Source: a virus (taxonomy: Duplodnaviria > Heunggongvirae > Uroviricota > Caudoviricetes). Taken from it: a stretch of DNA of 56,313 bases. Below the pieces are notes generated by a model, which was not told the origin of the DNA, did not search any database, and saw only the letters and a list, made by a program, of their open reading frames with translations. A program made the position numbers and the translations under genes. Of this stretch, positions 30,697 through 55,935 are shown one piece after another. Location: IMG/VR virus record IMGVR_UViG_3300021255_002251. The stretch is one strand, 5' to 3'. Every line of letters begins with the position of its first letter. The stretch's first letter is position 1.

Positions 30697-30731
30697 TGTC
30701 TTTGTCCTTTTCTTTTTCCTTGACGGCGGAC

Positions 30732-30761
30732 ATTATACCACACCTAGCAGGTGGGTTTCAA
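30732..30761 (-). promoter_or_regulatory. Sigma70-type early promoter P8
   Basis: TTGAAA-18 nt-TATAAT with TG extension. The leader reads GTCAAGGAAAAAGAAAAGGACAAAGAC. Confidence 0.85.
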
Positions 30762-30789
30762 GAGGTGGTAGATCTTTAGAACAGATTTT

Positions 30790-31320: not shown

Positions 31321-31335
31321 AGCATTTAACCGATA

Positions 31336-33408
31336 TTAAGGTGCTGGAGTTGGGATAGCTATTTTGTTAGAGATATAGAAGAGACTTGGAGCAGTCTCCG
31401 TAAAGTGCAAGATGTTCGTGCTTATCGTATTCAGAGAGGGGAAATTACCGTTTTCAGATTCAAACGATATTGACTCTTGCACTCCATTTGTCGTTGCTCC
31501 TACAAATGTTATCTTGTCTGGAGAAGTGATTGGCTCAGTTATGACAAGCCTAACCCTAAAGTCACGGGACTTGTTAGGGATAGGCGGAGGGAGTGTCACC
31601 TGCAAGGTATCCGATGATTTGACAAGGTTGTTCGCTCGATTGAAGAGGTGGCCGGGGAGTGACGCGCGGGTCGCGGTGTATGTAATATCCAAGACGAAAG
31701 ACAATTCCAGCGCATCCTCGTCTCCATCCGGGAAGACACCAAACTCATCCCCGTCGATGAGCGCCACCCATGTACCGTTTCTCCAGTCAAGCCCAAGAGT
31801 AAAACCTTGATATGTAGGCGGGTTGATCTCCCACTCACCCGGCGTCACAAGCGAATACGACAAATCAGAGGCGTCCGCCTTGCTGGACACTTCCGCATTT
31901 ATATGGTTCTGCAAGTTTGTCTCCCCAATCCAAACTCCAGCAAGACCGTTTCGAGGGTTTATGTTAAAAGAACCAATTCCATGAGACCCATAATAATGCC
32001 CTGCTGGCCCTTTATCATAAGTATTCCAAACGAATGAGAAATCGTTTGATGCATGAGAATCTGCACCTAGCGCAATCGTAGCCCTCCCAGAAGAAATGGA
32101 ATAAAGGCCGCTAGCTTTAGCAGCCACACCAGATGCTACCGTTTCATATCCCTCAGAATGAGCAAAGCGTTCTGATGCAACAGTATTAGTGCCTTCGGCA
32201 TGAGCACATAATCCATCTGCTCTGTTGTCTGCCCCTTGACTTAACGAACCAATAATATTCGCTTTTGTTGCAATAACGAACCCACGCGAATTTACGAAAT
32301 CCTCAGTGGCGATCTGTGTAGGAATTGACTCAATCTCTAACCGATTAAAGCCCGGCACGTTGGAAATCGTCGTTGACCATTTTGGGGCGGATAGTGTGAT
32401 TATTCTTGATATGGTATGCACCTCGCCGCCATAATCCTCTAAGCCAGCATTGATTGCATAGCTCCCATCTCCATTGAGAGAAACTACAAACGATGTTTTG
32501 CCGCTAACGTATCGCCATGATTGATATGTCTCGTCCCACTGCAAGGTATACACATCGTGAATTTCTTCGGAGTGCCAGACGGTGACGGTCAGCGGTGTGT
32601 GGTTCGCGGACGGGTCGGCATAGATGTTAAGGTCGGACAGGTCGCGCTTTGATGACAAAGCCGCCTCGGCCGCGTTGGTTGCTCCGAGTAAGAGGTCGGT
32701 CGCACTGTAACTTACTAAACCTTGGCTGTCATACAACAGGAATGCATCGTCCGCAACATTCGCTGTACTCGCTGTACTCACCGTTCGTGTTCCGTCCTCG
32801 AACTCGGCGGCCACGCTATCGGTATAGTTCGTTGCATCTGTCAGGTCTGCCGATCGAGGTATGTCGTTCGTCAGCGCGACACGGCCGACAATGTTCGGCA
32901 CGAATCTTCTGGCCGTAACTTCGCCTTCTGTGAAGTAATATTGGGCGAATGACAGATTCTTGTTGGTTGCCGCGTTCTGCCAGTCCTGTACGGTGTAAAT
33001 TCCCAGAGGACTCGAGCCAGAGCCGTCAGAGACGAACCATCCTGTGAACGTGCGATTAACGTCCTCAGGGGCGTAATAGTACGGGTAGTCTACTCCCCAG
33101 AACAGATAGCCTCCACCGAAATTAACGTCCATCTCCGAATCGGTGTAGTCCTTCCCATTTAGGGTATAAAACCAGTCCGCCTGCACCCTCCAGACAACTC
33201 CTGTCTCGTCCTGCCAGTATCCCGCGTTCCCTATGGACGTTGCCTTGAGAACCGTCCCAGTATTGGAGAAGTCCGATATCGCGGCATCAGTCTGCGATGC
33301 CGTATACATCGGAGTGGACACGCGAATGCTACCTAGATTCTGCGGAACCGCCTCGCCGCACACCGCGAGACACAATGCCACCATAGCCCAAAATCCGATA
33401 TTCTTCAT
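31336..33408 (-). CDS. Tail-fibre/adhesin-like protein with YadA-head-like (Hep/Hag) repeats and signal peptide, 690 aa
   Basis: AGGAG/GAGG RBS, an MKNIGFWAMVALCLAVCGEA signal-like N-terminus, AHAEG.NTVAS / AHSEG.ETVAS repeats, and VA..DIP and KAD fibre motifs. Confidence 0.7.
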   Translation of the reverse strand: MKNIGFWAMVALCLAVCGEAVPQNLGSIRVSTPMYTASQTDAAISDFSNTGTVLKATSIGNAGYWQDETGVVWRVQADWFYTLNGKDYTDSEMDVNFGGGYLFWGVDYPYYYAPEDVNRTFTGWFVSDGSGSSPLGIYTVQDWQNAATNKNLSFAQYYFTEGEVTARRFVPNIVGRVALTNDIPRSADLTDATNYTDSVAAEFEDGTRTVSTASTANVADDAFLLYDSQGLVSYSATDLLLGATNAAEAALSSKRDLSDLNIYADPSANHTPLTVTVWHSEEIHDVYTLQWDETYQSWRYVSGKTSFVVSLNGDGSYAINAGLEDYGGEVHTISRIITLSAPKWSTTISNVPGFNRLEIESIPTQIATEDFVNSRGFVIATKANIIGSLSQGADNRADGLCAHAEGTNTVASERFAHSEGYETVASGVAAKASGLYSISSGRATIALGADSHASNDFSFVWNTYDKGPAGHYYGSHGIGSFNINPRNGLAGVWIGETNLQNHINAEVSSKADASDLSYSLVTPGEWEINPPTYQGFTLGLDWRNGTWVALIDGDEFGVFPDGDEDALELSFVLDITYTATRASLPGHLFNRANNLVKSSDTLQVTLPPPIPNKSRDFRVRLVITEPITSPDKITFVGATTNGVQESISFESENGNFPSLNTISTNILHFTETAPSLFYISNKIAIPTPAP

Positions 33409-33456
33409 ACCTCTACTCCTTCTTGAAAATGCCATTAGGTTATTTCCAGCTTCATT

Positions 33457-36400
33457 CTAGAAATCAGGAAACCAATTCGTTGCCTCTCCTACCCAAGTGT
33501 ACGTAGCACTAGCGCCAGACCCTCCTGTCTTTCTAGGCGTTATGTAATATCCTTTCGGTTGAGTTCCCCAGTCAGCCAAGCACCATATTCGCAAATGAAA
33601 CGCATGCGCCTCTGTCCATGTCTTGCCCTCGGTCTGCCCAAACCCCTCATCTGAAAGAGAACAGAATGGGAATCCGCTCCTGCTCCTTATTGTTCCTTCC
33701 TTGCCATTTAAGTAAATGTCGAGATTAGAAGCTCCATACGGCCGTTGAACGTTAAACACGTCGTCACCAAGATTAATCTGGGAGAATTGATTGCCTAGGT
33801 ATATCCAAAAATGGTTTGACGCCACCTTGAATGCCCTGTTACCTATTTCGAGCCTTCCGGCATTGGTGTTAATCATCGGAACCCTCGATAATCCAGCACC
33901 CTCGAATGCGGACGTTCCAATTCTTCCAATTGATGAATTGAAAGCAGAAATTGACCGCATGTTGCTGCATCCGTAGAAAGCATAGTCGCCAATGTTTAAA
34001 ATTCCATTTGCTTCTACACGATACAGATACGGATTGTTCCTGGAAAACTCTCCTCCTACCACCCTTAATGATGGACATGGGCTCCTTCCGCCTCCTTCGT
34101 CAATTGAAGGCAAGCCGCATACAAACTTATACAGGGATTCTTGGTTGTGAATCTTTACTGCCACAATGTAGTCACCTTTCTTGGAAAACGTATGGTACGT
34201 ATTCCCATCATTTCCGCCGATGCTGGAATATGCCCCATCTCCCCAAACGACAGAGATTGACTGTTTTTTACTTCCATCCCTTCCGAAGTACCCTAGCTTT
34301 GTGCCGGCTGGAACATTTGAAAGGTAATAAGCTATATCGTATCTGGTATAGTCTATGCCGTGAATCTTGTCTAGGTTTTGGACTCCAAAAGGATATCCAG
34401 GAACATCTTTCATTCTCTGTGTGTCAAAATAGGAAGCTTCGCCCGGTAGCGGGACTCTCCTGTGATCGTCCATTGGAGATGCTTCACAGGTAACTTCTAC
34501 ATCTTGTGATGCTCCATTTTCCAAACTAAAAGCATTTCTTCCGATTGACGAGATGCACGTGTCGGAATTGAAAGCAAACGACCTTATGCTTGAAGAAGGA
34601 TAGAATAAGTTAGCTATCGTCTTCCCTGCTATTGGTCGGTATGCGACGTTCATTATGTACCCATACGTCTTGATGTAGTAACTGCCAGGTTGTGAATACT
34701 TATGAGACTTCAATGCCTTTGTTCCCTTTTCGACGGCAATCATATCTTCAGTGTCGTAGAAGTCTCTATTCCCATCGCCCCAGTCTATCAAAAGCTGCCG
34801 ACTGGAATCGTATGTCTTGAAATATCCAGGAGCAACCGTTGTGCCAGAGTTGACTGAAATCTGTGTTGTCGATACAGGAGAAGATATGGAAAGACCGGCT
34901 TTCTCCCCATATGTTACTATACCATTCTCACAAAAACATCCAATAACATAATCGTATCGTCCAACTGGGCCTACAACAGTTGAATAACTGTCTCGTTCGT
35001 AGCGGCTGCCATCTAGCATATATGTGGCCGTAAACACATTCGGCCTAAAACCGAATATGTCAGATTGAGGAAAATGGAAAAACTGATGCGTCGTTGATTG
35101 ATTAAAAGGAAAGTCATGAGGAGGTCCATAAGGATATTTGTCGTCTTCCCTATTCGCAAGAAAACTTTCGTAATAGAACTTAACCGACCTGTTAGGCATT
35201 TCTATCAGCTTTAGATTGTCCGTTCCGTAGAAAGCATATCCTTCTATCATTTCTAGTGACTTCGGAAGTCCTCTTGTGTCAACAAGGTTCTTTGTGTCTC
35301 TAAATGCCTGTCTCCTGATAGTAACAACATTTGTTGACATTCCGTAAAGGTTTGTAATATTGGTATTTCTGAATGCAAACAGACCAATCTCCGTTATAGA
35401 GTTAGGCATCCCTTCTAGTGATTTTAACCGCGTGTTATCGAAAGCTCCGTCTTGAACCTTCGAATCACCTTCCTGCCACCCAACCAATGAAGTCAATCCA
35501 GTATCCTTGAAAGAATACTTGCCGACATGGTTCAGAGTCCCAAACTGCTTCGATATGTTTGTTATGTTTGCACACTCGTAAAACTCATAGTCTTTGGCTA
35601 TCGACGTGTCAATTCGCTTTCTGTCGAGATTGGCGACGTCGCTACGAGCGAAACAACCGATTCCCACTGACAAGGTCTTCCCATGGCTCTCAACATCTAT
35701 GTGGTCAACCTTTGAGTTGGAAAAGAACCAATCACCAAATCCTGTCTGCTGACAATCCTTATTGAACATGATAGACTTTACGTGAGGCATCAAGGAATTA
35801 TAGTTTTCGTCCGTTATGAAAGGAACATAGTTTGTAGGATTGTTTTGGTCTAATCCTTGTGCTTTCAGCCATCCAGAAAGAATCGCATCCCCGACAATAC
35901 GAATCTTAATGTCACCTTGTAACCCAGTTCTTTTAAATCCAGGTATATAGTCGTATGTGTCTAATGACGGAAGACAACTCTCTGTTTTTGGAAGAGTAGG
36001 GTGAACATTTAAGCCCAACATTCCAACCATACTTCCAGCTCGAGAAGTCGAACTCATTGATGCAGGTTTATATCCAAATACTTTAGTCCCTATTATATCC
36101 ATTATTTGTTTATGTGTTATTGTTCCATCTGTAAGTTCAACAGGAATTGTAACTAGTCCCCATATGTCGCGTGCCAAAACACGGGCAGGTGTAACTATTG
36201 TAAGAGGCATGCTCATAGACGCGGCTAATGCTTTCCTATGTTCCGATGTGTCTATGTCCCAAATAAAAGATTCTACCTTGTCTCCAGGGACAGTAGGAGG
36301 AAGAGGCTCTGGCACAAAACTAGGGACAGATGAATATAGGTAATTGCAAAGTTTAATCGCCGTTCTTTCTAATGTATCACCAGAAGGCGCTAAGATGTGT

Positions 36401-39400
36401 GCAAGAGACATCGGAATGGAAGACACCTGCTGAAGAAGAGACCCTTCTGTGATTTCCATCCTAGGAGCAACGATTGCTCTTCCATACTCATCCTCGAGAT
36501 AACCAGTAGACTTATAGCCATCTCCCCAATCTACCTCTGTCAATTGACTGGAAGGCGGAATGCCTAAAATAACAGAAGTGTACTTTGGTAGATTTGTAAT
36601 GACAATTTCTACTGTAGGCTGAAAAGTGTGTCTAATCCCATTTTCAAACCACAAATCTCCGTCCTTCACGTGGAAGTAGGCATTGCTGAATACTCCAGAA
36701 ACAGGAATAGCGCTGATAACGTCTTCCATGTAGTAATCTCTATAATAGATGTGACATGGAGAAATCCCATCGAAAGAAGCAGGTGAAAATGTCGGGACAT
36801 TCATCATTTCAATATGTGTAATGTTACTACATCCCGCTATAAATGAACTTCCGAGATACAACATCTTTTCTCTTGGTGGATTGAACTCTTGAAGAGCAGA
36901 GCATCCAGCAAAAGCATAGTTTCCTATGTTTGTAACATGCGAAGGCATGGAGAATTCTGCGAGAGCAGAATAGCCCTTGAAAGCATTGTCGCCAATATGT
37001 TTCAACCCTTCATTTAAAACAACTCCGACAACGTTTGTTGTCTTATTTGACATCGAAGAATCCGCATAGACAAAAGGCTTTCCATCTTGAGTCCCTTCGA
37101 TTCTTAAGATGCTTCCTCCTGCCGCCGGCAACAGTCTTATGTTGACGTAATTAGCATCAGAAGTGTATTTATGAGAAACCCCAGAAGCAACTTTACTTGC
37201 GCTGTATGTAGAAGTTCCATCTCCCCAGTCTATGGTGAAACTACCGCTGGCTTCAATCTCTCCGATATGGAAGATGTCGTTTGCGCTAATGTCATTTATG
37301 CCTATCCGATTGCTTCCGAAATCGATTCGGTATCTCCTGTGGTCTCCAGCGCCCCAATTATAGTATCTTATCTCTCCATCTTTGCAGACGAATATTGTTT
37401 TTGTGTTCGCGCTCCACATCCCTCCTTCGCCGTCTCCTAGCTTGTTTGTCACAGATGCGGCCTGCCATGAAGGAAGATATACATATAAAGTCTGATGCAA
37501 TCCAGCAAGAGAGCATTCGCCCTTGCCTGGGATATTGTCCCCAAATGTTATCTGCCTTAGACCTTGTGATGGATTCGCTCCAAACAAGGAATGGCTTTTA
37601 ATCGAATGTATGTTTGTACATGACGTGAAATCAATGCTCCTTTTGGTAAACATAGTGTTTGTAACACAGTAATTCCCAATGGACATGAGATTGTTGTTAG
37701 TCGAAAAGGTTATGGAGTCCAAAGCAGTGCAATCAGCAAAAGCATAGTCGGAAATGTTTGTTATGACCGGTGATGTTATCTGAACATCAGTAATTCTTCT
37801 GCATCCCTTGAAAGAACCTATGCCCAAGTTCATTGTTGATTTCGGTATTACTGCTGTGCCATAGATATTTGTGCAGTTAAGATAAGCAAAATCTCCTATG
37901 CTTTCTATAGAATCTGGCAATGAAAAGAACATATAAATGTCTCCCAATCCTTCGAAAGCCCTGTTACCTATATGTTTCAGACCGCTCGATTCTGAAATCG
38001 AGATATTTGAAATATAGTTTGACATCACCGAAGGAAGGCTGTTCGTTGTTATAACATGATGTTGTAACGGATAGTTCCTTGGATATTCCCAAGTGTCTGT
38101 ATAGTGAGCAAGTCCAACAAATCTGTTTTTCGTAGCTAAGGTTTCGATGTCACCCATAATCACGATTTCGTATGTTCCAGTTGATGCATAAGAATGTTCC
38201 ACTCTTGCATCATCCGTAATGTTGGTAGAAAAAGAGTCCCCGAAGTCAATGATTATTCCACCAGAGTTTTTAGGTGCTATACCTTGGACATAGACAGTAT
38301 TGTACCAGTTCGTTTCCCATCTGTCTCCTATGTAAGTATTGTTCACAACCCAAACGTTGTGCTCATAGTTCGTTGATGTTATAGAATTTATTGTAACCGT
38401 GATGCCTATGGATTTTTTTATGGAGGTCCATATTCCGTTTATCTTAACAACGAATCCGTCTGAACAAATAAACCTTGTTGTAGGAGATGCGCCGAACGGG
38501 AATTCATCTGCAGCAATCAAGTCGTCGCACAGTACATTCGGAAGTCTTATCTTCCTTGTTGTTCGAAGTGAATCTTCAATTGTTAGAGGAACGTCCCTCT
38601 CGTTGATGAAAGCATCCGAATGTATAAGGTTAGGGTAGAATGTCGTTATCTGAATGTCTGACAATGATGTGTCAGCGAAAAGGTTGGAAGCCACTTCGTC
38701 GCAGTTTGTCGGAAATAAATGAAGGCTTCTCATGTCGCATCCTCGAAATGCCGCGTAACCAATCTCTAACACATTGGAAGGAAGATTCATAACGTCGAAT
38801 TTCGAGCAACCATCGAATGCGAAATTTCCTATCGAGATAGTGTTCGGTGGGAGACTTTCTATAATCCCTGATTTGCCAAGTGAAGAGCATTTGGAGAAAG
38901 CGCCTTCTCCTATTACGAGTTGATTTGTAATGGAATTCAAGGCGGAAATGTCGGAAAGATTCTCATTGTTCGCAAACGAAAAATCTCCAATGCCTGTCAA
39001 TGAGGAAGAAGGGATTCCAGAAAGGTTCTGAATAGAACACCCAAAGAATGCATATGACCCAATGGAGGAAACCTCTGGAGAACATCCATTCAACGAAACT
39101 AAAGACGTGCAGTTGCTAAATGTGGAGCTCCCTATCCTCGTGCAGTTCATTGACATGCCTTCAAGCGATGTCAATCCAGTACAGCCAGCAAAGCAGCCGT
39201 CAGACAATTCAACCAAGTTTGTTGGCATTCCTTCCATGCTAATCAATCCGGAACACCCCATGAAGCAATATTCAGGTATCGCAACATTGTTTGTATTAAA
39301 CCCGAGCAGGTTGCGTAACCCTATGCATCTTTGAAAAGCACCAACTCCCAAAGTCATTCCGCCTGAAACGCCCATTCCTTCCAAAGTTGACATTCCTGTG

Positions 39401-44466: not shown

Positions 44467-44486
44467 CCTCCGAAAAAATGTATCAC

Positions 44487-44960
44487 CTACTCGTCATCGT
44501 TGATGCCGAGAAGGGGCTTCATTACGGCGTCGTTGAACGTCTCCTTGGACCTCATCAGCGTGTCCGAATCCTTCAGCGGCTTGCACTCCCCAATTCGCAC
44601 CTTCATGTCGTAAGCCTTCTCTATCGCCGCCTTTAGCTTCTCCCAAACGTCGTCAGGCTTTATGATTTCGTCCCAGAATGCATCCACCAGAACCGAACCC
44701 TGCTTTCGGACAACATTGTGTCCGTCGTGTTCCACGGTAGCGAGAAGCGGCTCCATCAGGACGGCATTTATGGCATCCTTGAACTGGCGGAGAGTGGTGG
44801 CCTTTGTCATTACGCCAATGGAATCGGCAGCATCGGACATCTTCACAATGCGCTCTGCGAGTTCATCGAAGAAGTCCGGCTTGTCTATGATGTCGTTCCA
44901 CGACTTGTCCACAACAAGAACGCTGGAAGCATCGCCTTTTCTGAATATTGCCGGATCCAT
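44487..44960 (-). CDS. Two-repeat small protein, putative adaptor or chaperone
   Basis: Two copies of W..I..KP...TL...K...N....PLL. Confidence 0.8.
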   Translation of the reverse strand: MDPAIFRKGDASSVLVVDKSWNDIIDKPDFFDELAERIVKMSDAADSIGVMTKATTLRQFKDAINAVLMEPLLATVEHDGHNVVRKQGSVLVDAFWDEIIKPDDVWEKLKAAIEKAYDMKVRIGECKPLKDSDTLMRSKETFNDAVMKPLLGINDDE

Positions 44961-45000
44961 TTCACGAAATGCCCAGATGACAAATCTTTCGCAATGGAAC

Positions 45001-48000
45001 CTAATATGTGTGTATGTCCGTTACCGAGAACTTGCCGGTAGCCGCCCAATCGCTAGAGTAATCTCCTTGGGCAGCGGCTGGAACATATATCTCAACGTTG
45101 TCCCTAAGTGCATCGTAATCGAATACGCCAGAAGCTCCTAGTTTGGTGACCTTATCTTCTACGTCGGTGGAATTCCATCTGCTCAGCTTTATGTAGGTTA
45201 TGTTCTTGCATCCGCTAAAGCAATACGAACCTATCAGCCTAAGAGTAGAGGGAAGAGCCTTGCCAGTCAACGATTCTACAATCTGCGTAAGGCTCGTGCA
45301 GTTTGCAAAGCAATATTGCGGAAGTTCCGTAGCATGCGTTGCATCCATCCCAGACAAGTCCACAAGACCGGCACATCCGAAGAAGCAATACTCTCCTAAT
45401 GTCGTGACATTTGTTGAAACGTAATCCAAATCGGTCAGTTCCGTACATCCTCGGAATGCGGCAGCCCCCAGATACACTACATTTGGAGACATGCCATTTA
45501 GCGTAGCCAACCTAGTGCAGTTCTCGAATACACCTCCATAGGTAGAGAAGTTGCTGTCAGTTGTCTTGGTTCCTTCCGTTCCAAGTTTCGTGACGGCATT
45601 ATCCATCCCGGCTAGGCTTGCAATGCCGCACCCATAGAAAGCTCCATCCCCATACTCCGTGATTTGGGACGGGATTCCAGCCAAGCTCGTCAGAGCGGTG
45701 CAGCCACGGAACATCGCCTTGGGCAATGCCTTTATGCCAGAAGCAAACTCGATACCCGTAAGATTGGCAAGAGAAGTGCATTCCCTAAAGCAGTTCGTTC
45801 CGCGCCCAGCATTGAACTTTAGCACTATGTTGGAGAGGCTTTCAAGAGAATAGTTGTAACGGAAAGCATAGTTGTCAACCGTTATCTCTCTCTTGATAGG
45901 CGTGCCCGAAGACGTTCCGAAATCGAATCCCGTGAAGCAGAACCTCTGGAATGCCGAAAACCCTATCTTGTTGACCGTTGGAGGAAGCCAATCTAGCTTG
46001 GCGTCGCTGTCGGCCGGACGGACATTGAGGAAGCATCCGTCTGGAATCTCCGTAATGCCAGTGCAAAGTTTGAGGTTGCTAAAGTCGGTCAATCCCTTGC
46101 AATATGCGAAGCAGAATTTCCCTAGTTCCGATATGGTCAAAGGAACGAAATCAAGGTTAGTGATTTTCTCGCAGCCAAAGAAGAGGTTGTCTCCGAACTT
46201 TGTGACTGTATCGGGAAGTGTCTGTATCGTGGTAAGGTTGGTGCAGTATCCCAAGCATCCATCGGTAAGCTCTTCCAGAAATGCTCCGTCGAAAGAGACG
46301 CTTATAGCCCAATCGTTCCCTTCCTTGTCTTCATCAGACGATGCCTCTTTTGGAAGCACGTAAGTTGCCAGCAGGGGCTTTACCCGCTTCCTTCCTAGAG
46401 AAGCCGTCTGAGCATGGTCGGCTTCTCCTGCGAACGAAATCACATCGCCAAAGATGGAGACAGGGACAACCTGCGAAGTGACGAACTGTTCCGAACTATA
46501 CTCGTGACGGAGGTTGGATACAAGGGCTTTCGTAGGGTCGGTAGGGTCGTTGGCGATAGCCTCTAGCCCACTGCCGTCGCCCCAGTCGATATAGATGTTC
46601 TTTCCCGCATCCTTCTTGATAACGCCATTTCCCCATATCAGGCCGCCGCCAGCGGGGACCTGCAACGTCATGGACATTGCGAGATTCGATGAACTGGTGT
46701 CCGTCACAAGCGCATACTGAGCCCAATAGTAGATACCGAGCGGCCCATAAGGCTGGTATGTCTGGTAGTACGGAATCATGTCTGTAGGTATCGCAACCTG
46801 GACGGTTCTCTTCTTTTCTGCAGTGTCTATCGCGCTAAACGGATCGTGGCAGAGAACGTCTTCCCCATTCTCCCCGTTTTTGTCTTCCACGTATCCGGTT
46901 TCCTCTTCCACCTGCACAACCTTGGGATTCTCATCTGTCCCATAGGGGAAGTACATGATTCTTACATTTGGGTTCCCGCCAAAGGAATCGCCAACTAGTG
47001 TCACGGTATTTGTAGCGCCCACTTCAGCAGAGCATAGCCTGTTGATTCTGGTGATTCCGCAGCCATAGAATGCTCTGTAAGGATAGTAGGTGACATTTGC
47101 AAGCCCGTCGAATTTGGTTATCCCAGTACATCCCTCAAAGCACCCCTCTCCAATCTCTATTATGTTCTGGAGCGCATAAGAGATGTTGTTTCGGGTGCTT
47201 CCAGAGCCTTTCAGTTTGGTGCAGTATGCAAAGCAGTAGGCGCCCAACTGGACTACCGGGGTCGTCGCACTCAAGGCATTTACGTCTTGCAGGTTTGTGC
47301 ATCCGTGGAAGCATCCCTCATTCAAGGCCGAAGGTGTTGAAGAGAAGAGAGTCTGAATGCCATCGAGAGAAGTGAGGTTTTCGCATCCCAGGAACAGTGC
47401 CGGGGCGAAGGTTGCCGAAAGAGAATTCCCCGTTCTCCCGATACTGCTTATCCCCGTCCTAGCGAGCGCGAATCTCTCGAACACCTCAATTGCATCAGGC
47501 AGTTCCGAGAGGTCTCTTCCGCTGAATAGACTGTTGCAATTGTAGAAGCAGTATGCCGGGACCAGCTTCAGCGAAGGGAACTTGTCCCATTCTATGCTAA
47601 GACCTCGGCAGTTCATGAAGCAGGCTGCACCTATCGAAGCATTGTCGGGAGCCGTCCATGTGTCCCCAGAACCTTCCTCTCCCCATCTGATTCTTAAGGT
47701 GCTATAGTTAGGGTCGGAAATTCGAAGCATCTTGTCGTACTTCGCCCACACGTCGAAGTGCTTCTCTCCATACTTCGCTGACATCCAGTTCTCGAAGTCG
47801 GTGATTCCGGTATACCGCTCTCCAAGTGTCTGGCTGTCTCCATCGGGAGAAGTATAGAAATGTCCATATAGCAAGTTTCTGTTGGACCTAGAGAAGCATC
47901 CCTCTCCAAGAGAAGTGACAGCCAGCGGGATTGTTATGTCACCGAGCTTTGGACAGAGCGCAAATGCATAGTTTCCGAGAGAGCCCTCTACATAAGCAAT

Positions 48001-51000
48001 GATACTCGCAAAAGAAGAATCGGGCAGACTGGTACACCCGAAGAAAGCATAGGCTCCGATAGATGTTATGCCGTAGGCATTGAAACTCACCAGATTTGCG
48101 CAGTTCCTAAATGCTCCTGCTGGAAGGACATATGAATGAGGGTCGGTTGCATTCCCCCACGTGAACGACTTCATCCCGCAATTCTCGAATGCGGATTCTC
48201 CTATGCTCTTGACTTGGCTTGGAATAGAAACTGCCCATTCTTCGTTGTTCGCGCCCGTGCATCCGTAGAAAGCCCTATTGCCTATCGTAATGTTTCCGTT
48301 GGATAGCGTGGCGGCATCCGTAGCCTGCTCCCATGAAATGCCAGCCGTAATTCCATAGCAGCCTTCGAAAGCCGACTCGCACACGGACAACATGGAACTA
48401 GGCAAAACAATTTCTATCAGACCGTAGCACCCATAGAAAGCACGAACTCCGATAGAGGTAGCTCCATCCATGAAGGCTATCGTCCCCAACTGCGTACATT
48501 CAGCGAAAGCATATGCGCCAGCCAGTTTGATGGCGCCAGCGGAAGCAGTAGGATTTAGAGACGAAGAGTTGCATCTCCAGAAAGCACAGTCGCCAATCTC
48601 TATCCCATAGTCCGAGGAGGGCTTGCCAAACATGAGAGAGGAGATGTTGCATCCGCTGAAACAGTAGGTTCCAATGCGAGACAACTTGGAGTTTGCGCCA
48701 ACCTCTATCTCCAGTTTGAAGTCGTAAACGAGGTTTTCAGGAGTGTCGTCTATCGTGATTTCTGGCTGCTGCGATTCCGATGACGTGTCAGAAACCATGG
48801 TGAAGGAAGTAAGAGCCATAAACGGCCGCTTGTCGCTCGAAGGAGCTTCATTCTCTTCAAGAGGTATGTCGGAGCCGTCCGCCGTATAGATCTTCGAGAT
48901 GTCGCCACGTATGCTAATCGTGACAGCACCGCCGGTGACTCCTGACGAATATACATGGTTGGGGAACGTCCATCCCTTCACATCCTCACCGCTGTCGTTT
49001 AGCCTCGTTGTCGTGGTTCCATCACCCCAATCAATGAGGACATACTGCCCAGAGAAGTCTAGCCGCCCATTAGCTCCATAGAGCGCCGTCCCTCTTGTCG
49101 TAGTTCTTGTTCCTACAACGACCTCCTCCGAGTCGGGAGTCTCTTGGCGGGTAATGTCCTCTGTCTCTATAGTTGGGACGGGAATGTTGCCTTCTCCTAT
49201 CGTAAAGGTTAAATTAGACGTGGCAATAATGTTCTGGAAATATCTCGACCATCCAGGAGCGCTCTTGTAAGCAGGCAGAACACCTTCTGCTGGAGAAACG
49301 AACACGAGAACGTCTGCAGGATCGCCTGGGAATGTGGAGTTCTGGATTGCTGGCGGTTTCTGATAGTTGAACATGTCTATCGCACCGAAACCGCATCCAT
49401 CAAATGCATATGCTCCGAAACTAGCCGATAGCCCTTCATCGTCCCATTCGGTTATGGTCTTTTCTTGATATTCCTTTCCAAGACCTGTCGTGCCGTTAAG
49501 CGAAATGCAGTTCTCGAAAGCCCTAATCCCTATGGACAGAACGCTAGGGAAGGAAGAAATGGTTTGAAGGTTCTGGCAGTTGGAGAAAGCCTTGTTGCCA
49601 ATGGACAAGCATGACTTGAACCCGGAATCGGAATCGCCTATGTTCGACAGGGCCGTGCATCCGTTGAAGGCATACTGCCCTATCGAAGTCACGTGGCTAA
49701 AGCCCGTCACCGATTCAAGAGCGGGGCATCCTTGGAAAACGAAGTCTCCGAGAGTTGTTAGGCTGGCCATCGTCTCGGGAGCGGATATGCTTACTAGATA
49801 CGGATTGCCGCTTCCTATCTCCGTGGCGAGGAATGGATAGTTTGAGCTAGACTGGCAGGATAGGCTCTTGATGCTGCCGGTTATTGATATGTCAATCCTC
49901 TTGCGGCATCTTACTCCGTTGATGGTTTCCCATCTCGCCTTTTCTATGGAGTCGGCATTGTCGTAGTAGAGATAGGTGTGCGAAGGGAACGACGTCTGTA
50001 CGCTTTCCATCGTGTTTTGAGTTCCGTCGTCCCAGTCAACCGTCCATCTCGAATCCGATTCGATGCGGGCAACGCCAGAAGAGTTCGTCTCTGAGATTCC
50101 TTGTATCGTTGTGCCCGTTGGGACGTGCAGCATCGTGAACGTAAGCACCTGTGAGGCTATCGTGAACTTGTTCCAGAAGTCGTTCATCGTGTATGACGAT
50201 ACAGACTCGAGAGGAACATACACGTATACCGCCTTCTGGTCGAGAGCGGTTTCAAACTTTCCGAAAGACAAGTCGGTTATCGCCGCATTGTCGGCGACAG
50301 GAACTCCTACCTGGATATATGTAAGTCCGGGTATACCCCCGAAAGCATAGTCCGCGATGGTGAATCTCACTATGCCGCTTGAATCGGCAGCGCCGTTCAG
50401 GCCAACTATGCTCGTGAGACCAGAGCATCCGTAGAAAGCATACTTCCCAATGCTCCCTACCGTATCGAGAAGCGCAAGATTGTCTAGTGCCGTGTTGTAT
50501 GCAAATGCCGCAATGCCTACGGAAGAGATTCCAGACAGGTAGGCGGCCGATAGGTTCTTGTTCCGAAGGAAAGAGGAATGGCCAACTTCGGAAAGAACGG
50601 AATAAGACGACCTAGAAACTCTCGTCAGCATGTGAGCATCGCCGTCAAGAATGCTACCGTCATGTTCCAAGGTGAGGAACGACGTGCCAGAGATAGCATC
50701 CTCTCCCAATGGCACAATCGTTTCCCCTGCATCTTCATAGGGATAGGCGATGTCGTTTACGGTTGGCTTGGCGCAACCGATGGACGTCACCGCACCCTCT
50801 ATCCTCATCGTGTGGTTGCCGGACAGGGAGTATGTGTGCTGCGGAAGGTATTGCTCCTCCGCTCCGTCTTCGCTAGGCACTCCGTCCGAATCATAGGCAT
50901 CCCAGTCCACGACCCAGAACGTGTCGGACTTCACCTTGCCGATGTTCCCCTTCACGGTGAGATTGGAAGGACATGCTGTTAAGGTGAACTCCACGAATCG

Positions 51001-54000
51001 GCTTCTTATGTCTCCGAACACGGAACCCCATGATGAGGATTCCTTGTAGGCCGTCAGGCACTTTGTGCGGACATAGAGGGGTACTTCCGAAGACAGGCCG
51101 CTGAAAGCCGTTGTCGGCATCGTAGGCGGCTCTTCCGCGAACATCTGCACCTCTTGCAGAGGACAACTCGCAAATGCATAGTCTCCTATGCTCGTCACCC
51201 CAGTGCCAAGCCCGTCAATCTTCTTCAATGAAGAGCATCCGTTGAAAGCTCGCTCCCCTATTGTAGTGACGCGATTAAGCCCATATAGATTGGTTAGGGA
51301 AGCACACCCAGAGAATGCATATCGTTCTATTGAAGAGACGTTCGAGAGACCGGTGATGTCCGTGAGTTTCGTGGCATCCGCAAACGAATACTCACCTACG
51401 GAAACTATCGTGCTCGCATCCGTAATCGACTGGAGCACAGAGCATCCTCGGAAAAGGTAATCGCCTATCTCCGTTATGTCCATCGCATCGGAAGAGACAA
51501 CGCTCGTGAGCCAAGGGTTAGAGCCAACGGACTGCCCGAATATCGGGTATGCGGAGGAAGTGCACCTAATGGCTGTCACGGGACCGCTGATCTTTACAAC
51601 CTTTGTCGTCTCACTGCTCTTAAAAGTGTATGCTGGGATTGCCGTATCGCCCTCATGGAACTGGAAGGACTGCTCACCGTTTCCGTATGAGAGAACCCAG
51701 TTGCCTGTTGCCGTGACGATTCCCATGCCGTCTCTCGTCCTGCTTCCGGCCGATACATTCTTTAGAGTGAACTCTATGGAACGTGAGAGAATCCTTCCCG
51801 CGAACTTCGTCCAGAATTCCGTTTCCGCATAAGTCGTTTCATATCCTGCGGGAACATAGACAAGCGCAGTCTCGAAAACCGCATCGTCAAAGCCGTGTTC
51901 ATCCAATGTCGGAGGGGTGATGCTCGCCATGAAGATTCTGGTTATGTTCGGGCATCCCTCGAAAGCGCCATCCTCAATCAGCGCGAACGAATCGTTGAAG
52001 TCCTTGACGGTGACAAGCCCAGTGCAGTTCTTGAATCCATAAGCCCTTATCTCTGTAGCGGAGGAAAGCCCGGACGTGGTGATTATCCCGGTGCAGTCTG
52101 AGAACAGGCTTTCAGAAACTTTGGAAAGCGTGGAGAATCCAGAGAGTTCTGTGATAAGGGGGTTCTTTGCGAATGCTGCCTTGCCAGCCGTCACGACAGT
52201 GCTAAAAGGTGTAGAGGAATCCAAGCCGCACTGATAGAAAGCATAGTCTCCAACCGCAACCGCATTGAAAGCGCCTAGGGTTCCTATCGGACCATGAGCA
52301 TCGTCTTTCTTCGCAAAGGCATATGCGCCAACCGTTCCCGAACCATTCATATCCACGGAAACGGAAAGGGCGTTGCCGTTGCCGTCTCCGAGCGGCTGCC
52401 CATAGTTGAAGAAGCAGAAGTTGCCTATCTTCTTCAGATACTCCGAACTGATAGCTATCGAAGAGGCTTTCTGCGAAAGGTCTTTAAGGAAAGGAGACAC
52501 CCCCATCTCTTCTGGTGGATTGGCAACATAGTCTCCATTCACTATGTCGTCAGTATGGTCTCCCCATACTTCGATGATGTCGCCGAAGAGGGTTATCGTA
52601 TAGTTCCCTCTCTCGTCATAGGTGTGTTCGGCCAGAGCATCATGGACAGAGGAATCGCTAGAATAGAAATGCTCAAATTCCGTGCCGTCACCATAGTCGG
52701 CATACCACACTCCAAGATAGTGCTCGGAAGAAGGGTCTATGGAAACCTTGACGCCAGTATTGACAACCGCTTCGGTATCTATATTGACGTCGCCCTGTTC
52801 GGTTCCTCCTATGTTCTGCAGGTGGACTTTTATGGTTCTCGAAGCAATCTTTCCGAAGTTCTTCCACGTAGAGGCGGAAGAAAAAGATCCTACCATGTCC
52901 TCTTTCACATAGAGAGGTATGCCAGATGCTGGCGCACCGCTAAATGCGGAAGATGAAATCGTCGGGACGTTCGAGGCAACGCACGAAACCTGCTTTAGCC
53001 CAGTGCAGTTCTGGAAAGCATAGTCTCCGATGTTTGCTATGTCTGGCCCCAGCCCGGAAGTGGCTATGAGGCTTGTGCAGTCGGCAAAGGCATAAGCACC
53101 GATAGAGGTTATGTTCCAGCATCCGATGAGCGCCAGAAGTCCGCTTGCCTGGAAGCACTTGGCAGGAATCTCCGTGACGGAAGGAGCTTCAAGAATCGCA
53201 GAGATGTCTTTTAGCAGAGAGTTGCGGCTGAAGCACCCTTCTCCGAGTTCCGTTACCTTGTCCGTCAACCCTTCAAGGCTTGACAACAAGCAGCCCGCGA
53301 ACATATAATGTGAGATAGCGGTAATCTCTGATGCATTCGCTATCGGGAGAATGTTCTCTATAGCGCAGTTCTCAAAGACATGACTCCCCATCCCTTCCGA
53401 TACAAGGCTCTCAATGCCCTCTATGGAAGTAAGACTATTGCACTCCGCAAAGCAGTAGTCTGGCAGCGTGGTGATTCCAGTGTACGGCAATGCCGTAATG
53501 TCGGCCAGATATGAGCATTTGTAGAAGCAGTGGTCTCCGATAGTTCCAAGTGCCGCCGTCCCGAGACCGCTTATGGAGGAAATTTTAGTTTCCGCAAAGC
53601 AGTATGACGGTAGTTCCTTCACGTCCGTCGCATCGTACTCCAGCGCCGTGATTCCAGACTGCCAGAAGCACCTTTCACCGAAAGCGGGGAAGAGAACAAT
53701 AGTCTCTATCGGGACAATAGTTCCGTCGTCCAACTGCTCATAGGTTGTCGTATGCTCTTTTACGAGCCTACCGAGACCAGCCTTTAGCCAAGCCGTGCTT
53801 GTCAGAGCGGAGCATCCCCAGAAAGCCCTTTCGCCTAGGCAATAGTCGCGCTCCTCTTCCAAGCCGCATTCAATGCTGGCAAGATTTATGCACCGAGCAA
53901 AAGCATAGTCGCCAATCATCTCCAAAGGAGAATCGGTCACAGTCACGGACTTCAAGTTTGCGAACGGAGAAGCAGCCGTTGTAGCTAAGAACGGATAGGA

Positions 54001-55908
54001 TTCGGAAGAGGCTGCGGCTATCCTTCGGACATAGCCCTTTATCGTTATCGTCGCATTGGCTACGGCATCCTTGTAGGTGAATGACGGAAGCGCATCTACC
54101 GAAGGTATGAACCGCTGCTGCTTGTCTCCGATACCAAACGAGATTGTCCAGACGGAATCCGAGATGAGGTTGCTCGTAGTGTCAAGAAGGGTCGTCCCCG
54201 CCTGCACATCTTCCAAAGCGAATTCATAGACGCCATACTTCTTCACCGTCATTGCGCCCCAGACGGAATCGTTCTGGTAGGCGGAGAGAAGCGAAGCAGG
54301 GACATAGACGATTGGAGTCTCCCCGTCGAAGGCCGTAACATCGAGTGTTGGAACGGCATCCGCATCGCTCATGATGTTCGTGAGCATCGCGCATCCCGCA
54401 TAAGCCCCTTCGCCTATCTCGGTAGTGCTTGAGGAGAGGTAGAGAGATTCGAGAGAGGAGCAGTCGGCAAAGCACCGCTTCCCGATTGTCTTCAAAGATT
54501 CAGGCGGATATAGTATGGCCGTGATTCCGGTGCATCCGCAGAAACACTCCTCACCAAGTGATTCAATCGTTTGCGGAAGTTCGTCTATGTTCTTGAAGGA
54601 GGTGCATCCCTTGAACACATGGGAACCGATGCTGGTTATTCTTTCTGGAAGGTTGCCGCAGTTCTTCAACTGAGTGCATCCATAGAAGCAGTCGTCTGGA
54701 ATCTGTTCTATCTGGGTGCTTTCGAGACCTTTGAGGCTCAATAGGCTCTTACAGTTCTGGAAGCATCCGATTCCGAGAGAAGTGGTCTTCTTCGGAAGCC
54801 ATGCGATTTCCATCAGCGAAGAGCATCCCGCAAAGGCATAGTCTCCAAACGTGATGGAACTCTCGTTGCCCTCGTTCCACATGACCTTCTGCAGGTTCCC
54901 GAAGTACCCGAACGTGCCGTTTCCTATCGCGGATAGCGGAACTCTCTCGCCAACCGAGAAACCTGAAAGGTATGCGAACGGCTCACCCTTGGAATTGAGG
55001 AAGATAGGCTTGGATTCGTCGGCGCTCCAGATTCTGGTGATGTTCCCCTTGATAGTGAGGGTGACGGTGCCGCCTTTTAGCAAAGTGTGCTTCTGGGTCG
55101 TGTAGTCATGCCCCTCTTCGTCTTGCCCCCTGTCCGTGTCGAGAAATACAACCTCATTCCCCGTTGCGGCCATCGTGATAGTCTGGTCGGAGCGAAGTTT
55201 CAGACCATCGTCTATTTCCACGATGAACGGAGCATAGTAAGCCTCTCCAGAACCAGTGTTTAGAATGTCCAGCCTGATGTTGCTCACGTCTATCACGGTG
55301 CCGAGAGGAACGCCGGAGAACGTGAACGTAAGCTGCCTCGTCTTGGAATACTCTTCGTTGTTCGGGTCGAAGATAATCCGATTCAGCAGCCCTTTCGTGT
55401 CCCTGAGAGTAGAGGAGGGGGTAAGCATCTCCCTCGTGTCGACCGCTTCCTCGTGCATGGCTTCTACCATGTCTAGCGCCTGCTGCACGCCTGTCGGCTT
55501 GTCGTAAATGTCGTTCCACGAAATATCCGTTCCGGGAGATCCGTCTATGACTGTCTTCTTGTTTTTAAGGTCTAGCCTGTCCTCATCCGTGTTCGTCACG
55601 GTCATGGACCAGTAGAGGGTACTCGTCTGGTTGTCGAAACGATATGTGAAATCGTCAACCGAGGCTACGAAATCCAAGCCCTCGATACGTGACTGAACCT
55701 GTGCAGCCCAGAAGTCTATGTACGTTGGGTTTTGAAGGACTGTGCCGAAGTAGTCTATTCCCCTGTCTGGATCGAACTGGAGTTCGCCCTGCTGCGTCTG
55801 CAGAATCGCCTCGATAACCGCACACTGGGCATCGGCATCGTGCAGGATTGCAAGACCTCCGGCTTCGAGATAGAGGTCGTTATCGGCATTTCTTCCTAGG
55901 GTTTTCAT
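45001..55908 (-). CDS. gp25-like baseplate/sheath-initiator domain fused to a giant BspA-type LRR / PKD-like array, 3635 aa
   Basis: Residues 1-114 (NDLYL..G.LA...A......L.T..GE..FD...GIDYF...I.....V..V) fit the gp25/XkdS/Mu gp46-like pattern. About 8 PKD-like modules follow, with LRR blocks and P....F...YVP...Y....W caps. Confidence 0.85.
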   Translation of the reverse strand: MKTLGRNADNDLYLEAGGLAILHDADAQCAVIEAILQTQQGELQFDPDRGIDYFGTVLQNPTYIDFWAAQVQSRIEGLDFVASVDDFTYRFDNQTSTLYWSMTVTNTDEDRLDLKNKKTVIDGSPGTDISWNDIYDKPTGVQQALDMVEAMHEEAVDTREMLTPSSTLRDTKGLLNRIIFDPNNEEYSKTRQLTFTFSGVPLGTVIDVSNIRLDILNTGSGEAYYAPFIVEIDDGLKLRSDQTITMAATGNEVVFLDTDRGQDEEGHDYTTQKHTLLKGGTVTLTIKGNITRIWSADESKPIFLNSKGEPFAYLSGFSVGERVPLSAIGNGTFGYFGNLQKVMWNEGNESSITFGDYAFAGCSSLMEIAWLPKKTTSLGIGCFQNCKSLLSLKGLESTQIEQIPDDCFYGCTQLKNCGNLPERITSIGSHVFKGCTSFKNIDELPQTIESLGEECFCGCTGITAILYPPESLKTIGKRCFADCSSLESLYLSSSTTEIGEGAYAGCAMLTNIMSDADAVPTLDVTAFDGETPIVYVPASLLSAYQNDSVWGAMTVKKYGVYEFALEDVQAGTTLLDTTSNLISDSVWTISFGIGDKQQRFIPSVDALPSFTYKDAVANATITIKGYVRRIAAASSESYPFLATTAASPFANLKSVTVTDSPLEMIGDYAFARCINLASIECGLEEERDYCLGERAFWGCSALTSTAWLKAGLGRLVKEHTTTYEQLDDGTIVPIETIVLFPAFGERCFWQSGITALEYDATDVKELPSYCFAETKISSISGLGTAALGTIGDHCFYKCSYLADITALPYTGITTLPDYCFAECNSLTSIEGIESLVSEGMGSHVFENCAIENILPIANASEITAISHYMFAGCLLSSLEGLTDKVTELGEGCFSRNSLLKDISAILEAPSVTEIPAKCFQASGLLALIGCWNITSIGAYAFADCTSLIATSGLGPDIANIGDYAFQNCTGLKQVSCVASNVPTISSSAFSGAPASGIPLYVKEDMVGSFSSASTWKNFGKIASRTIKVHLQNIGGTEQGDVNIDTEAVVNTGVKVSIDPSSEHYLGVWYADYGDGTEFEHFYSSDSSVHDALAEHTYDERGNYTITLFGDIIEVWGDHTDDIVNGDYVANPPEEMGVSPFLKDLSQKASSIAISSEYLKKIGNFCFFNYGQPLGDGNGNALSVSVDMNGSGTVGAYAFAKKDDAHGPIGTLGAFNAVAVGDYAFYQCGLDSSTPFSTVVTAGKAAFAKNPLITELSGFSTLSKVSESLFSDCTGIITTSGLSSATEIRAYGFKNCTGLVTVKDFNDSFALIEDGAFEGCPNITRIFMASITPPTLDEHGFDDAVFETALVYVPAGYETTYAETEFWTKFAGRILSRSIEFTLKNVSAGSRTRDGMGIVTATGNWVLSYGNGEQSFQFHEGDTAIPAYTFKSSETTKVVKISGPVTAIRCTSSAYPIFGQSVGSNPWLTSVVSSDAMDITEIGDYLFRGCSVLQSITDASTIVSVGEYSFADATKLTDITGLSNVSSIERYAFSGCASLTNLYGLNRVTTIGERAFNGCSSLKKIDGLGTGVTSIGDYAFASCPLQEVQMFAEEPPTMPTTAFSGLSSEVPLYVRTKCLTAYKESSSWGSVFGDIRSRFVEFTLTACPSNLTVKGNIGKVKSDTFWVVDWDAYDSDGVPSEDGAEEQYLPQHTYSLSGNHTMRIEGAVTSIGCAKPTVNDIAYPYEDAGETIVPLGEDAISGTSFLTLEHDGSILDGDAHMLTRVSRSSYSVLSEVGHSSFLRNKNLSAAYLSGISSVGIAAFAYNTALDNLALLDTVGSIGKYAFYGCSGLTSIVGLNGAADSSGIVRFTIADYAFGGIPGLTYIQVGVPVADNAAITDLSFGKFETALDQKAVYVYVPLESVSSYTMNDFWNKFTIASQVLTFTMLHVPTGTTIQGISETNSSGVARIESDSRWTVDWDDGTQNTMESVQTSFPSHTYLYYDNADSIEKARWETINGVRCRKRIDISITGSIKSLSCQSSSNYPFLATEIGSGNPYLVSISAPETMASLTTLGDFVFQGCPALESVTGFSHVTSIGQYAFNGCTALSNIGDSDSGFKSCLSIGNKAFSNCQNLQTISSFPSVLSIGIRAFENCISLNGTTGLGKEYQEKTITEWDDEGLSASFGAYAFDGCGFGAIDMFNYQKPPAIQNSTFPGDPADVLVFVSPAEGVLPAYKSAPGWSRYFQNIIATSNLTFTIGEGNIPVPTIETEDITRQETPDSEEVVVGTRTTTRGTALYGANGRLDFSGQYVLIDWGDGTTTTRLNDSGEDVKGWTFPNHVYSSGVTGGAVTISIRGDISKIYTADGSDIPLEENEAPSSDKRPFMALTSFTMVSDTSSESQQPEITIDDTPENLVYDFKLEIEVGANSKLSRIGTYCFSGCNISSLMFGKPSSDYGIEIGDCAFWRCNSSSLNPTASAGAIKLAGAYAFAECTQLGTIAFMDGATSIGVRAFYGCYGLIEIVLPSSMLSVCESAFEGCYGITAGISWEQATDAATLSNGNITIGNRAFYGCTGANNEEWAVSIPSQVKSIGESAFENCGMKSFTWGNATDPHSYVLPAGAFRNCANLVSFNAYGITSIGAYAFFGCTSLPDSSFASIIAYVEGSLGNYAFALCPKLGDITIPLAVTSLGEGCFSRSNRNLLYGHFYTSPDGDSQTLGERYTGITDFENWMSAKYGEKHFDVWAKYDKMLRISDPNYSTLRIRWGEEGSGDTWTAPDNASIGAACFMNCRGLSIEWDKFPSLKLVPAYCFYNCNSLFSGRDLSELPDAIEVFERFALARTGISSIGRTGNSLSATFAPALFLGCENLTSLDGIQTLFSSTPSALNEGCFHGCTNLQDVNALSATTPVVQLGAYCFAYCTKLKGSGSTRNNISYALQNIIEIGEGCFEGCTGITKFDGLANVTYYPYRAFYGCGITRINRLCSAEVGATNTVTLVGDSFGGNPNVRIMYFPYGTDENPKVVQVEEETGYVEDKNGENGEDVLCHDPFSAIDTAEKKRTVQVAIPTDMIPYYQTYQPYGPLGIYYWAQYALVTDTSSSNLAMSMTLQVPAGGGLIWGNGVIKKDAGKNIYIDWGDGSGLEAIANDPTDPTKALVSNLRHEYSSEQFVTSQVVPVSIFGDVISFAGEADHAQTASLGRKRVKPLLATYVLPKEASSDEDKEGNDWAISVSFDGAFLEELTDGCLGYCTNLTTIQTLPDTVTKFGDNLFFGCEKITNLDFVPLTISELGKFCFAYCKGLTDFSNLKLCTGITEIPDGCFLNVRPADSDAKLDWLPPTVNKIGFSAFQRFCFTGFDFGTSSGTPIKREITVDNYAFRYNYSLESLSNIVLKFNAGRGTNCFRECTSLANLTGIEFASGIKALPKAMFRGCTALTSLAGIPSQITEYGDGAFYGCGIASLAGMDNAVTKLGTEGTKTTDSNFSTYGGVFENCTRLATLNGMSPNVVYLGAAAFRGCTELTDLDYVSTNVTTLGEYCFFGCAGLVDLSGMDATHATELPQYCFANCTSLTQIVESLTGKALPSTLRLIGSYCFSGCKNITYIKLSRWNSTDVEDKVTKLGASGVFDYDALRDNVEIYVPAAAQGDYSSDWAATGKFSVTDIHTY

Positions 55909-55935
55909 GTCATTAAATGCCGAAATATAAAAACC

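Follow-up and report, generated by a model that had tools for sequence, protein, structure and literature searches.

A sheath-initiator domain fused to a giant leucine-rich-repeat chain, and its predicted two-repeat partner, in a family of large tailed phages

We analysed a 56,313-nt stretch of phage DNA (the window), which is the left end of the 223,335-bp IMG/VR virus record IMGVR_UViG_3300021255_002251 (G000; 89% complete by CheckV). Four genes in it, named G1, S, G2 and G4, form the end of the tail operon. The G1 protein begins with a sheath-initiator domain that continues in frame into a chain of immunoglobulin-like (Ig) domains and leucine-rich repeats (LRRs), and this fusion of initiator and Ig/LRR chain is real and old and recurs across a family of uncultured jumbo phages of the gut. 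S is a small protein predicted to clamp the stalk of G1. Sequence comparison and structure models suggest that each virion carries six long monomeric Ig/LRR arms at the sheath-baseplate junction, each braced by one S protein, and we give this reading a probability of about 0.68.

Results

A sheath initiator at the N-terminus of G1

The four genes are all minus-strand open reading frames (ORFs) with intergenic gaps of 20-40 bp, which agrees with the four neighbouring same-strand genes described in an earlier reading of this DNA from its sequence (the original prediction). G1 (45001-55908) encodes 3635 aa and consists of a gp25-fold N-terminus, a short module and an Ig/LRR array. S (44487-44960, 157 aa) has two copies of the module and no signal peptide. 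They are followed by G2 (33457-44466, 3669 aa) and G4 (31336-33435, 699 aa). The likely start of G2 is at 44460 (M3), since M3 is invariant in the alignment of homologues, and that of G4 is at 33408 (M10).

Residues 1-115 of G1 (55564..55908, minus strand) form a sheath initiator of the gp25/TssE fold (PF10934/DUF2634 type), as profile and structure matches showed. This region was matched by phrog_120 at E 8e-13. By sequence, G1 was matched by the 'sheath initiator' gp34 of E217 (PDB 8env_H, E 0.003) and also by the Pa193 initiator. PF10934 was precomputed for 28 of the 30 G1 homologues described below; the Pfam scan of G1 itself did not list it. An AlphaFold2 model was built for residues 1-569, with a mean predicted local distance difference test score (pLDDT) of 83. 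It matched gp21 of Pam3 (7yfz_X, probability 1.00, TMt 0.58), a gp25 protein (2ia7_A, Z 10.4, root-mean-square deviation (rmsd) 3.0, 105 aligned) and TssE (6gj1_D, Z 9.6, rmsd 2.7, 99 aligned). The gp25-like fold that had been proposed for residues 1-114 was thus found by profile, sequence and structure.

Only one phrog_120 match was present in G000, and only one in its relative G001 (complete at 251,769 bp, 100%, with inverted terminal repeats); each lies within the giant frame. The initiator gene of G1 sits behind the wedge genes and the genes at the fibre position, whereas a relative, L020, keeps a free 114-aa initiator between spike and baseplate J; no ORF was found at that place in G000. 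The ratio of non-synonymous to synonymous substitution rates (dN/dS) of the initiator was 0.10 against G001 and 0.04 against a second relative, G002, where it is near saturation; the comparison with a third relative, G003, was saturated. The initiator domain of G1 is under purifying selection.

Homologues of G1 residues 1-190 were searched among proteins of 1,999-6,362 aa. Thirty hits were obtained from 386 candidates (2,414-4,334 aa, 46-98% identity), all 30 with LRR_5, and many of them are on contigs of 100-255 kb. Of the 8 viral loci that the alignment retrieved, 4 are distant (27-43% identity) and carry a stand-alone initiator, and the other 4, close IMG/VR records, carry the fusion (in two of them the gene runs off the contig). 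A further contig, obtained in a different study (X2 record 15), covers 43004-55931 of the window; it differs by 630 substitutions and by five single-base gaps, which together restore the frame. In 50,697 GenBank phage records, the initiator matched 36, with less than 60% identity over residues 3-117 among the matches listed, and the LRR stretch matched 11, none of which is a close relative. No shared slippery heptamer was found on comparison of the first 700 nt of 4/4 genes, and a programmed frameshift near the fusion was rejected on this ground. The initiator tree had long branches and unsettled bootstrap values, and a single origin of the fusion is not demonstrable from it.

The genomic context is that of a phage. 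G000 encodes terminase, portal, head protease and major capsid protein (C1:77881-78972), and a minus-strand tail module of the E217/PB1 type lies immediately upstream of the four genes. Its order is gateway, DUF3383 sheath, E217_Gp32 tube-type gene, a 1661-aa ORF, Dit-like gene, Pam3_gp18 plug, E217_GP41 hub, spike, Baseplate_J, DUF2612, ORFs of 269 and 403 aa, and then G1. The 1661-aa ORF sits at the tape-measure position and has no family match. The contig was checked for a cellular origin, and phage genes were found across the whole 223 kb with the contractile-tail module upstream. A search of five records (5/5), G000 and G001 among them, for tyrosine integrases and large serine recombinases found none. 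Phage context, gp25 fold, sole match, family-wide fusion and purifying selection argue strongly for the baseplate-anchored LRR arm of the original prediction in the case of G1.

A module shared by G1 and S

Behind the initiator, residues 126-181 of G1 (55366..55533, minus strand) form a single helical-hairpin module of 55 residues (W..I..KP-helix-loop-STL..vK..lN), which hhalign and a complex model mark as the predicted binding site of S. In S, two module copies (44742-44918 and 44505-44693, minus strand) stand behind an N-terminal FRKxDA hook and are predicted to clamp the G1 stalk, and the small protein is indeed one of two repeats, as had been proposed. The hhalign probability between the G1 module and S was 98.65 for repeat 1 and 87.2 for repeat 2. 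The TL..K..N helix, which had been noted in three of the four proteins, is the second half of the module; the claim held for G1 and S, which share the whole module, and failed for G2, which was at background. The corresponding stretch of G2 (TLRGIKQVVN) was rejected as a module copy, with -0.7 bits versus 4.8 for the best unrelated ORF and an hhalign probability of 14. The G2 homologues reached at most 0.7 bits or gave no hit, and the K and N of the stretch are not kept in distant G2 homologues. It is part of an amphipathic segment before the first Ig domain of G2 (residues 289-302; 43561..43602, minus strand), whose TL..K..N likeness is not significant.

A joint module profile was built from the 30 G1 and 28 S homologues, and it detected one module in 30/30 G1 and two modules in 28/28 S homologues. 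Additional full-length S relatives outside the profile also have two copies, split by an insertion in two cases, and relatives of up to 103 aa have one. Long insertions between or within the modules were seen in the S relatives P0088 (344 aa) and P0091 (241 aa), which implies that S itself can take cargo. The S profile gave 37 hits only over 1.84 billion representatives, one of them a 3,652-aa G1 homologue (E 1.8e-4). Within G000, G001 and G002 the module is confined to G1 and S, and its dN/dS was 0-0.03. In the hook of S, F6 and K8 are nearly invariant. No specific fold match to the S model was found in the PDB (best Z 5.5), which does not show a new fold.

The complex of G1(112-190) and S was modelled with our own alignments and three controls, and the benchmark is therefore rough. 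The complex score was 0.71 (0.82, 0.71 and 0.68 in the runs), and the best of the three controls scored 0.00. In the benchmark, the score mark was reached by 116/157 solved complexes and by 2/215 mismatched pairs. The runs had at least 77% of contacts in common, with a partner pLDDT of at least 70. On G1 the modelled interface covers residues 125-183, and both S repeats touch G1; F6 and K8 of the hook are outside it. Equivalent positions are in contact (L168 with S L57 and S L135; T171 with S F60 and S S138), as a three-fold bundle would require. The model supports a 1+2 pseudo-trimer of the G1 module and the two S modules. Since G1 and S both have no signal peptide, the pair would assemble in the cytoplasm. 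The docking idea of the original prediction thus survives, by model, for G1 with the signal-less S, and its link to G2 through the shared motif fails.

Equal longest-contig sizes suggest, indirectly, that G1 and S co-occur in six further cases, which include the most distant pair (194,199 and 9,166 bp). The divergences of G1 and S were correlated over 9 pairs (Spearman 0.94, 0/2000 permutations). This correlation was not counted as co-evolution, since kinship is shared, 6/9 pairings rest on equal contig sizes and two pairs are near-duplicates.

The Ig/LRR arrays and their variation

The rest of G1 (residues ~190-3635; 45001..55341, minus strand) consists of 8 Ig-like domains alternating with BspA-type LRR blocks, according to Pfam and our own profile. 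LRR_5 (BspA) was above cut-off in both giants, with E 1e-233 for G1 and 2e-206 for G2. At least 64 LRRs were counted in G1 and at least 54 in G2, versus 0-2 in five shuffles of each; the spacing is 24 aa in G1 and of the 23-24-aa TpLRR type. The first LRR module of G1 matched the Bacteroides LRR protein 4fs7_A (Z 19.9, rmsd 4.2, 272 aligned). Both giants had been described as LRR/PKD proteins. The BspA LRRs were found in both; Pfam called PKD in G2 only, and our own profile recognised Ig-like domains in both (8 in G1 and 9, two of them weak, in G2).

Sequence identity drops from the N- to the C-terminus in G1 and G2. Synonymous sites of G1 and of its counterpart in the near-identical G001 diverge by 0.05-0.20 up to residue 1,035 and by 0.40-0.83 beyond, with dN/dS below 0.3 where computable. 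The mosaic identity and the jump in synonymous divergence beyond residue 1,035 fit a replacement of distal G1 modules by recombination between close relatives. Such module exchange would be expected of an anchored binding protein. The combination of export signal and cell-surface anchor that marks BspA adhesins was found in neither giant: G1 has no signal peptide in 30/30 homologues, and G2 has no hydrophobic anchor or shared C-terminal motif.

G2 and G4 have signal-like N-termini

The G1-S-G2 order is kept in 3/3 records long enough to show order. The slot after G2 is occupied by different proteins, of 699 aa in G000, 957 aa in G001 and 519 aa in G002. The four-gene system of the original prediction is therefore conserved for G1, S and G2, and its search in related contigs recovered this order; gene 4 is a variable slot whose proteins are replaced between relatives and keep only ~40 residues. 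As for further loci, a metagenome scan returned the G001 contig only, a G2 scan returned G001 and G002 only, and a scan for distant S was empty.

Signal peptides were detected with our own heuristic (charge of the n-region, hydrophobic h-region, cleavage site with small residues), not with SignalP. It was passed by G2, by 9/9 G2 homologues and by 3/3 G4-slot proteins, and failed by 30/30 G1 and 28/28 S homologues; genome-wide, 14/191 minus-strand ORFs passed. A G1 without and a G2 with signal peptide had been predicted, and by this heuristic both hold across homologues. G2 (33457..44466, minus strand) contains a signal-peptide-like segment at residues ~3-28, a conserved fibre-like region at 29-300, and then the 9 Ig-like domains and at least 54 LRRs. 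The sequence of its leader varies with the charge and hydrophobic pattern kept, and an invariant LNDF.P follows directly, which is the pattern expected of a cleaved signal. The most conserved part of G2 is the mature N-terminus. From these features, Sec export is likely for both G2 and G4. A search of the two proteins for a lipobox, a transmembrane anchor or a common C-terminal motif found none.

G4 (31336..33435, minus strand) has a signal-like end and a VPxxLGxIRVxTPMYT motif and is otherwise mosaic and fibre-like. The signal-like end and the motif are common to the three G4-slot proteins. For the 'fibre with signal peptide' that had been proposed, the signal-like end was found by the heuristic; the fibre label rests on a YadA_head match below cut-off (E 0.007), Atlas feature hits of 0.78-0.82 (under the 0.9 bar) and shared motifs. 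Short fibre-type motifs are indeed shared by G4, the first 300 residues of G2 and another signal-bearing ORF (1365 aa) at a different place in the genome. Their style may resemble that of Kiritimatiellae prophage proteins. The Atlas search with the G2 N-terminus gave no usable match.

A comparable pair, a fibre-like gene with a signal next to an LRR gene, is found in a complete 201-kb phage (G005) that is unrelated and has no phrog_120 or S match. The cassette that G000 shares with G005 (G000:C1:129358-137993 and L025:5160-13354) has three genes: one fibre-like with a signal, one LRR gene starting MxIAxxIQ, and one of 133-138 aa. In the complete G001, no comparable LRR match was seen outside the tail region. 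After the G4 slot of G002 there is a diversity-generating retroelement (L015:13243-17040) with a 700-aa target and a reverse transcriptase; in its template repeat, 13/14 mismatches are at A.

Discussion

In the mechanism that we propose, the sole detected sheath initiator, fused in frame to the ~3,500-residue Ig/LRR chain, would root the arm at the baseplate. One G1 module and two S modules would close into a pseudo-three-fold helical bundle, which would be the stalk between initiator and arm; S would likely complete it as a trimer-like support for a chain that has to remain monomeric. The arms may bind a host or substrate surface, and their distal modules may be exchanged by recombination to change specificity. 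With ~0.5 nm per LRR and 3.5-4 nm per Ig domain, an extended arm would be ~60-80 nm long. If the tape measure is the 1661-aa ORF, the tail would be ~250 nm long, scaled from A-1(L) with 1045 Å and 689 residues (PMC10966104). In E217 and Pa193, each baseplate has six initiators, which make no contact with one another (PMC10329688, PMC11456595), and the same copy number is described for phi92 (PMC13450770). Since G1 is the only initiator detected, six 391-kDa chains would be present per virion, unless they are cleaved. Sheath contraction in phi92 and 812 is triggered by the initiator ring, which expands (PMC13450770, PMC13433997); the C-terminal arm of the phi92 initiator rearranges in contraction and packs on the wedge (PMC13450770).

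Several points weigh against this reading. Since the C-terminus of the phi92 initiator packs on the wedge (PMC13450770), room for the G1 arm is assumed. The pLDDT of the G1 model is below 50 at residues 1-22, 40-47 and 123-136, that is, at the initiator N-terminus and the module. G1 and S carry homologous repeats, and this likeness may raise the complex score. The homologue search covered only proteins of 1,999-6,362 aa, far above the size of an unfused initiator. The G000 record carries a 'provirus' flag. G1 may also be cleaved after translation.

Such cleavage, or a shortening after the initiator or the module, would make G1 polyprotein-like, with a small initiator in the virion and an LRR chain that acts apart. 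We consider this distinctly unlikely. The characterised initiators are small (108-125 aa), the linker at ~123-136 was modelled at low confidence, and the genome encodes C1- and C14-type peptidases; against this, the fusion is kept down to 46% identity, no slippery heptamer is shared in the first 700 nt of 4/4 genes, and the linker region is the strongly conserved, predicted S-binding module. That the fusion is an artefact, arising from mis-assembly, from loss of a stop codon or from an island of cellular adhesin genes that became attached to phage sequence, would suit the 'provirus' flag and the BspA LRRs, which are typical of bacterial genes. It is extremely improbable and was ruled out by the 30 independent fused homologues and the independent spanning contig; in addition, phage genes cover the 223 kb, and the G1 alignment was unmatched in GTDB genomes.

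The remaining alternatives concern G2 and G4. In the full model of the original prediction, G2 (and G4) would be exported, matured outside the cytoplasm and docked on the G1-S arm at lysis, giving one composite appendage. The G1-S-G2 order in 3/3 records (partly on the X2 contig), the Ig/LRR module type that G2 shares with G1, its conserved mature N-terminus, its place in the tail operon of a phage in which no integrase was found, and the lack of a membrane anchor or conserved C-terminal sorting motif are consistent with this model, and the hook of S, being outside the modelled G1 interface with F6 and K8, could bind a third partner. We regard the model as doubtful, given that G2 has no G1/S module, that G4 is replaced between relatives save for ~40 residues, and that the gene pair of the unrelated 201-kb phage occurs without this initiator, so the baseplate is not required. 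Nor does cysteine content separate the signal-less G1 (102) from G2 (86), and it gives no reason for periplasmic maturation. Docking of G2 and G4 on the G1 arm is disfavoured by the missing module and the independence from this baseplate. Alternatively, G2 and G4 could be exported non-virion proteins that act at the envelope of the infected cell, with only G1-S being structural; they could, for instance, mask the receptor against progeny or rival phages or glue the cell to a surface. Receptor-masking exported phage proteins do exist, such as Llp of T5; the signal-like ends of 9/9 G2 homologues keep their pattern through sequence variation, and the PDB matches of the BspA/TpLRR type are cell-surface proteins. 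This alternative is tentative, with the odds against it: no lipobox, transmembrane anchor or shared C-terminal motif was found that would hold G2 or G4 on the cell, fibre-type motifs are common to G2, G4 and the 1365-aa ORF, and no integrase was found to support long lysogeny. The late-operon position, the absence of a detected integrase and the conserved mature N-termini favour an association of G2 and G4 with particles; that they join or accompany virions at lysis through these N-termini, not through the G1/S module, has in our estimate somewhat less than an even chance.

The initiators gp34 of E217, gp35 of Pa193 and gp21 of Pam3 resemble the G1 domain in sequence, fold and tail-module type. 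They are stand-alone proteins of 108-125 aa, whereas G1 is a 391-kDa chain of which the domain is the first 3%. An initiator with an extra domain is known from phage 812, whose gp115 (LysM and handshake domains) relays the contraction signal (PMC13433997). There the addition is described as one small LysM domain inside the baseplate core, in contrast to a 3,500-aa variable array with a dedicated partner in G1. In gut phages, tandem Ig-like/BACON arrays are described as host-derived adhesion domains on or near virion proteins that undergo domain exchange (PMC6949934, PMC9853417). By comparison, G1 combines BspA LRRs with Ig domains, is far longer, sits on an essential contraction subunit and has a two-repeat clamp. 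The BspA/TpLRR surface proteins (PF13306; 4fs7, 4fdw, 6mlx; HupY/LrrG) have the same repeat and fold as G1 and G2, in which, by contrast, no cell-wall or membrane anchor was found.

LRR proteins are already common in the annotations of uncultured phages (BFVD). Judged by name and size, no entry among the 50 BFVD rows shown combines initiator and LRR, and the initiator-fold hits were 100-260 aa. In BFVD A0A8S5LI66, a 614-aa 'Tail sheath protein', the alignment with the G1 model extends over 269 columns, and this protein may be another tail-protein LRR fusion. One literature match for BspA was a row of an annotation table (PMC7765460). In open-access papers and preprints, neither an initiator fused to a giant LRR/Ig array with a two-repeat clamp nor an exported tailed-phage virion subunit was found described. 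The parts (phage LRR proteins, adhesion arrays, an initiator with an extra domain) are known, and the placement on the contraction-trigger subunit is unusual.

The wedge is where the fibres of solved myophages are attached, and it is the small initiator that relays the signal to fire to the sheath. Across the whole phage family studied here, a variable adhesin-like chain of ~380 kDa starts at the C-terminus of this subunit. If the arms are on the virion, the initiator can serve for display and may itself sense when to fire. Should G2 reach particles as well, the assembly of tailed phages would involve a subunit that is exported; no precedent for this was found in the literature searched. It is conceivable, although unlikely, that host recognition has moved from the wedge fibres to the contraction trigger, with arms that pull the initiator ring via the S-braced stalk and an exported giant added via the S hook, the virion being finished across the membrane at lysis.

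Other features of the genome

The 269- and 403-aa ORFs upstream of G1 (G000:C1:55783-57803; L001:83-2103) are partly within the window, where the 3' end of the 403-aa ORF occupies 55936..56313 (minus strand). Their place behind baseplate J and DUF2612 is where tail-fibre genes usually lie, and from this position and the likeness to an L020 ORF only we infer that they are tail fibres. PDB and family searches with both ORFs gave no match. They vary more than baseplate J, with 38% and 31% versus 75% identity in L013.

Related sequence comes from bovine and sheep gut metagenomes. In the search for a host, both GTDB genome scans were empty, including the scan with the G1 alignment. Over 29,500-46,500 of the window, 19 promoters and 9 terminators were found, versus 22.6 and 13.7 in shuffles, which is uninformative. 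The window bases 1-153 are absent from the G000 contig.

Two further LRR genes of the BspA type (310 and 929 aa, no signal flagged) are situated between the DUF4054 adaptor and the gp29-like gateway gene (G000:C1:72734-76480; L001:17034-17966, L002:11-2800). The same slot contains proteins of 310 and 982 aa in G001 and of 896 and 1027 aa in G002, and the 310- and 929-aa proteins may be neck-associated. Upstream of the head protease gene, an FtsK-domain protein (1646 aa) and a MuF_C/ART-PolyVal polyvalent protein (1469 aa) are encoded (G000:C1:82146-91532; L002:8466-17852). At the other end of the window, 2992-4263 and 4735-8223 (minus strand) include a 423-aa Gly/Val/Ala-rich repeat protein with a weak bactofilin match, adjoining ParB-like and PAPS-reductase-like genes. 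G000 also has 38 tRNA genes in two clusters (L007:2927-4987, L009:5556-8497), alongside genes for tRNA-His guanylyltransferase, RtcB and RNA ligase.

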